Counted from the first letter of the stretch, positions 44,660 through 44,910 are shown. The stretch is DNA of 64,000 nt from Escherichia coli (GCF_017348835.2 NZ_CP072317.1); one strand, 5' to 3'. Translations and numbers: made by a program. The notes: generated by a model from the sequence alone, not told the origin.

Positions 44660-44910
44660 TTCCGCGACACCGGGCGGTGCCGTGCCTCCATCGTAGCCGG
44701 GCGATAAGGCGGGGATGCACAGGGCGCAAGGGAAGCCGCAGCCTGACGCACACGGCTGGCGGGAGTTGGAGGGTGAGACCGCGAAATCTGAGCGGGTGAA
44801 CGACCGGAAAATCACGGCAGACGGGAAGGAGGGACCGGGTGACCGCAGCGGCGAAGCGTACCCTTGCATCCCTGCCAGCCCGGCTACGATGGAGGCACGG
44901 CACAGCCCGC
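44660..44910 (+). promoter_or_regulatory. long imperfect hairpin immediately 5' of klcA (candidate ssDNA promoter, unrelated in sequence to Frpo)
   Basis: ~26-bp perfect inverted repeat arms (44673-44700 and 44877-44904) with partly palindromic interior. Confidence 0.45.

Follow-up and report, generated by a model that had tools for sequence, protein, structure and literature searches.

How can an incoming IncF plasmid express its antirestriction gene klcA before it has become double-stranded, and what part is played by the long inverted repeat that lies immediately in front of this gene? The question arises in a 64,000-nt stretch of Escherichia coli DNA (NZ_CP072317.1, assembly GCF_017348835.2; hereafter the window, with positions counted from its first letter), where the original prediction, made from the sequence alone, had proposed that a hairpin upstream of klcA may be a second class of ssDNA promoter. 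We interpret the segment 44671-44909 as the IncF copy of the class 2 ssDNA promoter (ssp2 in F), driving klcA before the plasmid is double-stranded, and place the probability of this reading at roughly 0.88. Its structure, strand, orientation, homology, family-wide covariation and gene association were observed here, and early induction, start sites mapped by 5' RACE and a roadblock activity are taken from papers on orthologues that are 95-97% identical. From these we infer the exact start site and the firing of the particular allele carried by the window, in which a mismatch bubble is closed.

The window derives from an F-like plasmid and contains an IncF leading region. Below 31.6 kb, the - strand holds traM, traJ, traA and the tra genes that follow them. 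A nic-like sequence, which we take to be of the R100 type, follows on the + strand; above it come an SLT/orf169 gene on the + strand and then, at higher coordinates, the leading region. The features on which the orientation of the locus depends are the following.

31798 to 31814, + strand: oriT nic-like sequence GTAGTGTGTGGTGCTTT, identified by sequence match
44209 to 44634, - strand: klcA/ardB antirestriction gene, an ORF and the first gene of the unit that the hairpin would drive ('antirestriction protein', WP_001198928.1)
43740 to 44162, - strand: ORF of a DUF1380 protein, co-oriented with klcA and downstream of it
43552 to 43743, - strand: ORF of 63 aa, likewise co-oriented and downstream of klcA

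Since it bears the nic-like site, and the tra genes occupy the opposite strand at lower coordinates, the + strand is the one that is transferred, entering the recipient 5'->3' toward rising coordinates. It serves as template for five genes of the - strand named here, psiA, psiB, ssb, klcA and the methylase gene. The klcA product matches the solved KlcA structure 2KMG at the sequence level (E = 1.8e-18), and the DUF1380 and 63-aa ORFs probably belong to one transcription unit with klcA, ending before a Frpo copy at 42730-43183. Elsewhere in the same region, a match to F ssiE (92%) lies beside oriT at 32402-32590, and two near-perfect, almost loopless palindromes occur at 32652-32707 and 37091-37146 (arms of 28 nt with a gap of 0 nt, and arms of 26 nt with a gap of 4 nt, respectively); one is close to the hok region, the other directly in front of ssb. 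A database plasmid, NZ_CP091808.1, differs from the window at 1 position over 43600-46000; it is annotated with a group II intron ltrA gene, and no such ORF exists at about 41500-43300 of the window, so it is a related but different plasmid.

The inverted repeat in front of klcA is the longest within 400 nt across positions 30000-64000 of the window, and it has no second copy there, a BLAST search with a word size of 7 having matched only the element and its own arms. Its parts are as follows.

44671 to 44909, + strand: hairpin of the class 2 ssDNA-promoter type (ssp2, 'Frpo3' or Frpo' 4), identified from the inverted repeat, ssDNA folds and identity to F and pESBL
44671 to 44727, + strand: left arm, from the pair table; putative template strand of the promoter duplex, with transcription leaving through the base toward klcA
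44856 to 44909, + strand: right arm, from the pair table and the family table; putative non-template strand, bearing the -35-like and -10-like hexamers

The repeat search gave outer arms of 32 nt (44671-44702 and 44878-44909) that are 97% complementary and 175 nt apart, with a single mismatch between 44676 and 44904 and a perfect run of 26 bp joining 44677-44702 to 44878-44903. This agrees with the perfect repeat of about 26 bp, enclosing about 175 nt, that had been described at the outset. The left arm given then, 44673-44700, holds; the right arm, given as 44877-44904, was off by a few bases. The interior, said to be partly palindromic, is indeed so: in the minimum free energy (MFE) fold of the + strand the stem continues inward past the arms to about 44727/44856, interrupted by bulges, and the left arm has 5 unpaired extra nucleotides in three of them (GA at 44703-04, AA at 44706-07 and C at 44720). 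The base of the stem is 36 nt from the klcA ATG at 44634, close to the expected 40 bp. Folded as ssDNA, the + strand of 44650-44930 reaches -83.7 kcal/mol against -58.0 +/- 3.6 for shuffled sequences (z = -7.2), and 0/200 shuffles equalled it, so that the comparison with shuffled controls came out as predicted; the - strand reaches -73.0 kcal/mol (z = -5.4).

The right arm carries two hexamers, TTGCAT and TACGAT, which are separated by 15 nt and oriented to transcribe klcA off the transferred strand. From the sequence and the fold we assign them as a putative -35 and -10, and a start site can be predicted from the stem geometry.

44864 to 44869, + strand: -35-like hexamer TTGCAT, base-paired within the stem and with fixed spacing in the family
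44885 to 44890, + strand: -10-like hexamer TACGAT, fully paired in the copy of the window
44683 (+/- 2 nt), - strand: predicted transcription start, 7 nt beyond the -10 hexamer, from stem geometry and sequence

Both hexamers resemble the consensus moderately (3/6 for TTGCAT, 4/6 for TACGAT). The spacer of 15 nt on the arm that bears them is below the canonical 16-18 nt; the template arm has 19 nt. A start at 44683 would leave a leader of 49 nt, with GGAGG ahead of the klcA ATG. A consensus scan of both strands over 44100-45200 found no sigma-70-type duplex promoter, the scan requiring a spacer of 16-18 nt and hence being blind to the 15-nt arrangement; this accords with, but does not measure, a promoter that would be silent in the duplex form.

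Long hairpins on the transferred strand are already familiar from class 1, which comprises Frpo/ssiD of F and ssi1-3 of ColIb-P9 (Masai & Arai 1997, Bates et al. 1999, Couturier et al. 2023). In these, the hairpin rebuilds a -35 and a -10, fires only when single-stranded and drives leading-region genes, which is the same working mode as that of class 2; the downstream genes differ, being of the ssb/psiB and ygeA types in class 1 and klcA, ardA or a methylase gene in class 2. The leading region of the window has three copies of class 1 and a hairpin of a further class.

33948 to 34402: classical Frpo/ssiD (class 1) copy, found by BLAST
39424 to 39878: second classical Frpo/ssiD copy, found by BLAST
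42730 to 43183: third classical Frpo/ssiD copy, found by BLAST
47292 to 47516, + strand: class 3 / ssp3 hairpin, upstream of the DNA methylase gene 46549 to 47232 (- strand)

Searches with ssiD and ColIb Frpo2 matched at 33960-34309, 39436-39785 and 42757-43089, and not at 44660-44920. Conversely, the klcA hairpin has no detectable similarity to class 1 by BLAST, its best match to the three Frpo copies being 17 nt at E = 1.9. A transferred-strand hairpin acting as a pseudo-promoter, with nothing beyond this 17-nt match, is what had been meant by Frpo-like architecture without sequence similarity, and on this point the description was accurate. As for the Frpo copies themselves, the first two, separated by 5476 bp, match each other at 100% over 300 + 82 nt, and the third shows 85-89% identity. 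Through the identical pair, the segment that it encloses could be deleted or duplicated.

The hairpin at 47292-47516 has 30-nt arms of 83% complementarity, 165 nt apart, and folds to -77.7 kcal/mol (z = -4.8). With 96-98% identity to the methylase-upstream regions of F, R64 and pESBL, it corresponds to the published class 3 / ssp3 promoter of M.EcoGIX. Class 3 resembles class 2 in being a long hairpin of the same leading region, but the two sequences are unrelated and, unlike for ssp2, no roadblock activity is reported for ssp3 (bioRxiv 10.64898/2026.01.09.698686). In F, pESBL and the window the methylase gene stands behind a class 3 hairpin, whereas in many other Enterobacterales it stands behind a hairpin of the class 2 type.

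The klcA hairpin itself is closely related to elements that have been studied experimentally. The intergenic region of the window is 97% identical to the F region upstream of yfgB/ardB, and shares 95% and 93% identity with its pESBL-EA11 counterparts in front of klcA and ardA, respectively; with each of the two R64 copies, in front of ardA and ardB, the identity is 98%. At >= 90% identity the element occurs in more than 5000 PLSDB plasmids. Wen et al. (NAR 2025, PMC12672017) identified early-induced operons in pESBL transconjugants, mined the upstream sequences for hairpins and named the similar hairpins 5' of klcA and ardA class 2 ssDNA promoters, next to ssi1-3/Frpo as class 1 and the hairpin 5' of M.EcoGIX as class 3. 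Their 5' RACE start sites for all six promoters agreed with their own predictions, and classes 2 and 3 are stated to be conserved in F (PMC12672017). The F element was named ssp2 by Fraikin et al. (bioRxiv 10.64898/2026.01.09.698686, January 2026), who found that it controls yfgB, an ArdB homologue, and that its stem is a roadblock at whose end complementary-strand synthesis stalls until UvrD resolves it. A third group independently calls the class 2 element Frpo3 (bioRxiv 10.1101/2025.04.03.647016). Supplementary Table 2 of Samuel et al. (Nature 2024, PMC11541004) lists the bioinformatic candidate Frpo' 4, which aligns to 44664-44999 of the window with 81% identity; their Frpo* 1 and Frpo* 3 are more distant, the latter aligning to 44831-44903 with 77% identity.

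Judged by these alignments, four names already exist for the element upstream of klcA: class 2, ssp2, Frpo3 and Frpo' 4. The pESBL and F class 2 elements share with the window the leading-region position 5' of klcA/ardB, the strand and a hairpin with TTGCAT-15-TAnGAT, but they differ in having AAA instead of CGT at 44692-44694, TAAGAT instead of TACGAT, and a 3-nt bubble instead of perfect pairing. Frpo' 4 and Frpo* 3 share the GCCCGGCTAnnnT...CACGGC core and the TTG at -35; unlike the window copy, Frpo' 4, Frpo* 1 and Frpo* 3 are candidates from an insect-gut metagenome element, and Frpo* 1 and Frpo* 3 belong to a short size class (about 145 nt) that was found here mostly upstream of methylase genes. 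The proposal of a second, Frpo-unrelated class of ssDNA promoter for early antirestriction expression is thus supported, such a class having been published for the 95-97% identical orthologues, and our own observations agree with it (the transferred + strand, hexamers facing klcA, the lack of a predicted duplex promoter, upstream terminators and covarying stems); the idea was right but is no longer new.

For relatives of the hairpin, one genome per species was scanned with the core pattern GCCCGGCTANNNTNNNGNCACGGC, and a match was kept if its left arm was complementary. This gave 59 distinct hairpins, counting the window, F and R64 copies, with new members from Klebsiella, Yersinia pestis, Pantoea, Erwinia, Buttiauxella, Rahnella and other genera; since the pattern fixed GCCCGGCTA...T...G.CACGGC, conservation at those bases is not independent evidence. 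Matches in Streptomyces chromosomes, Bacteroidota MAGs and other non-enterobacterial sequences were rejected as chance (left-arm complementarity <= 14/24). Near-identical enterobacterial leading-region DNA, with the hairpin and klcA, ardA or a methylase gene, also occurs in assemblies labelled Gram-positive (two Streptomyces morookaense contigs and four from Oscillibacter, Oscillospiraceae and Collinsella MAGs), most likely through contamination or mis-binning of E. coli/Klebsiella plasmid contigs.

The relatives fall into two size classes, with an arm spacing of about 145 or about 200 nt. In 50/59 unique members TTG, which lies outside the search pattern, is found exactly 15 nt upstream of TAnnnT, and the -35-like hexamer is paired in most of the MFE folds. 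The spacer geometry is nevertheless not uniform across the family: two Klebsiella-type copies have a spacer of 20 nt on the right arm and about 15 nt on the left, and the copy upstream of ardA in pO113 (NC_007365.1, 901-1200) has a TTGCAT-TACGAT spacer of 20 nt on both arms, which in this copy are perfectly complementary from the stem base to past the -35. In an alignment of the long class (n=38), the RNAalifold consensus has 97.8% of cells paired, compared with 36-45% for slid partners. Compensatory changes were found in 14 pairs against 2-5 in slid controls, many of them shared by two clades and so representing few independent events.

The strand on which the fold is best bears directly on whether the structure acts as DNA or as RNA. 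The hexamer-bearing strand folds better than its complement in 59/59 members, by 8.1 kcal/mol on average, as expected under selection on the ssDNA structure of this strand and not on mRNA. An RNA-level role, whether as terminator or attenuator for the operon upstream or as a leader controlling klcA translation, predicts the opposite, because the strand that folds better is complementary to the mRNA sense. Transcripts arriving from upstream would admittedly fold strongly too, given the z-score of the minus strand, but no T-run follows the big stem, no Rfam 15 covariance model matched in 43000-48000 at E <= 1, and the interval from the upstream ORF (45052 to 45879) to the hairpin already contains two terminator-like structures with T-runs.

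45026 to 45044, - strand: intrinsic-terminator-like hairpin with T-run, just past the upstream ORF
44942 to 44960, - strand: second terminator-like hairpin, between the upstream ORF and the promoter hairpin

The first of these would insulate klcA from transcription arriving from upstream. We therefore regard an RNA-level element as very improbable and retain the ssDNA promoter as the explanation of the fold.

The genes beside the hairpins are as consistent as the fold. Five of the 59 elements are cut by contig ends, and in 54/54 of the scorable ones a co-oriented ORF lies beside the same arm. The first such ORF encodes KlcA/ArdB in 16, ArdA in 15, an orphan DNA methylase (214-229 aa) in 20 and another protein in 3, so that 51/54 stand upstream of one of three anti-defence proteins; the gene start is 20-55 nt away in 51/54. 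NCBIfam named only the methylases (PRK13699), having no KlcA or ArdA model, and KlcA and ArdA were recognized by PDB sequence matches. The suggestion that the same hairpin would be met upstream of klcA or ardA elsewhere is hence borne out. At eighteen loci, in Pantoea, Erwinia, Yersinia pestis, Cedecea, Rahnella and other Enterobacterales, it is the methylase gene that has a class 2-type hairpin in front of it, and the short subclass of about 145 nt serves mostly methylase genes, in Pantoea, Erwinia and relatives.

This regularity is hard to reconcile with a miniature inverted-repeat mobile element, or a recombination site, that came to lie upstream of klcA by chance. Terminal inverted repeats flanking a core of roughly 175 nt would suit such an element, as would near-identical copies upstream of different genes (2 in R64 and pESBL, and <= 5 matching places per record). 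The constant arm and gene set, the strand asymmetry in every member, an interior that covaries as one continuous stem and the restriction to leading-region-like contexts all speak for a promoter, and an element placed by chance is in our view highly improbable.

A few GenBank records place a 190-aa CDS, 'DUF1472 domain-containing protein', over the hairpin on the klcA strand. One such CDS, at 1448-2020 of the CP030319 locus, spans the hairpin and overlaps the klcA start, as in other records, and ORFs of the window do match it (44607..45212 and 44600..44944 on the - strand, 44715..44936 on the + strand). These three overlapping ORFs, however, have no current Pfam match even at E <= 10, and most annotations keep the region intergenic. 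Among the relatives, indels of 1, 2, 4, 5 and 9 nt and a size class differing by roughly 53 nt would break any frame, and the variation is compensatory between the arms. That the region codes for a protein and the inverted repeat is incidental is thus scarcely credible; the annotated CDS is probably spurious and coincides with the ssDNA promoter.

Within this otherwise uniform family, the window copy is unusual at the -10. In the 24-nt core, positions 2, 3 and 4 of the -10 are complementary to the opposite arm in 6, 8 and 10 of the 59 members, respectively, whereas the flanks are paired in 55-59/59. The MFE folds of nearly all members leave either positions 2-4 or positions 2 and 4 of the hexamer open with the others paired, and a mismatch bubble at positions 2-4 is present in 57/59. 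According to these models the -10 hexamer normally sits in a small bubble of mismatches. In F, R64 and pESBL, TAAGAT stands opposite ATAAAA; in the window, TACGAT stands opposite ATCGTA.

44692 to 44694, + strand: allele-specific CGT (AAA in F, R64, pESBL and most plasmids), which makes the left arm exactly complementary to TACGAT

The window copy is one of two exceptions; an independent perfect copy occurs in Erwinia sp. OLFS4. Compared with the K. pneumoniae plasmid CP030319 over 43600-46000, the window shows only 3 differences, which are adjacent (44692-44694, CGT instead of AAA) and are exactly the bases that close the bubble. The change looks like a single hairpin-templated, quasipalindrome-correcting mutation. 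The bubble has also been closed, by independent events, in the ardA copy of pO113 and in an Erwinia plasmid, but closure is rare: the full 55-nt allele is present in only 5 PLSDB plasmids, from E. coli and Klebsiella, and 19 records in all matched the allele-specific query. About 13 further plasmids, such as that with the pO113 ardA copy, have the same perfect arm in a different inner context.

Could the CGT allele then be mainly a structural barrier to complementary-strand synthesis, its own promoter being weakened by the closed -10 bubble? Complementary-strand synthesis is reported to stall at the stem end of the F orthologue, and the window copy is the most stable of the 59 (-82.6 kcal/mol, compared with -80.2 for F in the family folds); it has lost a bubble that 57/59 relatives keep, and the allele is rare among > 5000 plasmids. 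On the other hand, roadblock and promoter are not exclusive in the published model, ordinary promoters also have a fully paired -10, and 19/19 of the allele-query records are predicted to be conjugative, with full-length carriers in two genera, so that closing the bubble is not obviously disabling. We consider a predominant barrier role unlikely. The bubble may have a function in firing; a search of open papers retrieved no passage on the role of mismatches in Frpo. The activity of the closed-bubble allele may differ from that of the F and pESBL copies that were studied. If the conserved bubble is what makes these hairpins fire, the CGT allele would be a weaker promoter and a stronger roadblock. 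That the perfected allele is both a hairpin-templated change and a natural separation-of-function variant of this kind is an idea we put forward tentatively and think somewhat doubtful.

Folded ssDNA also serves as a pseudo-promoter for host RNA polymerase at two other kinds of site, the single-strand origins of rolling-circle plasmids and, in filamentous phages, the minus-strand origin. These differ from class 2 in that they give rise to short replication primers and not mRNAs, and in their unrelated sequence. The klcA hairpin might be primarily a priming signal (ssi) for the complementary strand, at which RNA polymerase makes a short primer. Frpo was first described as yielding primer RNA in vitro, and transcripts of class 1 promoters can prime conversion in vivo (bioRxiv 10.64898/2026.01.09.698686). 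RNA-seq and 5' RACE, however, show that the klcA and ardA operons downstream of class 2 hairpins are fully induced from them (PMC12672017), the close and co-oriented gene in 51/54 cases points to mRNA, and the same preprint assigns priming to ssp1/Frpo and the barrier to ssp2 (bioRxiv 10.64898/2026.01.09.698686). A primarily priming role is accordingly quite improbable; priming and roadblock are compatible additions to a promoter, not alternatives to it.

We envision the class 2 promoter to work as follows. The + strand would enter the recipient 5'->3' from oriT, bringing in klcA first and the hairpin sequence right after. While still single-stranded, 44671-44909 would fold back into the long stem, in which the right arm, with TTGCAT-15 nt-TACGAT, could act as a surrogate non-template strand. 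Host sigma-70 RNA polymerase would bind this pseudo-duplex and transcribe the left arm outward from about 44683, giving a klcA-DUF1380-orf63 mRNA. As this mRNA would be made from ssDNA, the antirestriction protein would be present before the plasmid becomes a restriction substrate. Complementary-strand synthesis would later turn the hairpin into an ordinary duplex, in which the hexamers are no longer on the gene-proximal strand, and the promoter would thereby be switched off. For the F orthologue, a stall at the 3' base of the stem until UvrD opens it is reported to prolong expression from all downstream ssDNA promoters (bioRxiv 10.64898/2026.01.09.698686).

As a positive control, the locus shows that a functional class whose experimental description came only in late 2025 could be recovered from sequence alone. 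What the present work adds is that the -10 hexamer almost always sits in a mismatch bubble, which is lost in the allele of the window, and that the family is broader than its F and IncI1 examples, with 59 copies in many enterobacterial genera, often driving an orphan methylase gene. If the hairpin-templated origin of the closed bubble holds, its recurrence would be in vivo evidence that the hairpin is extruded. ssDNA promoters explain how antirestriction, SOS-inhibition and methylase functions are expressed within minutes, before the incoming plasmid is double-stranded. This early expression step is a determinant of the spread of resistance plasmids, and the class 2 element, carried by > 5000 PLSDB plasmids, is among the most widespread of the sequences behind it.
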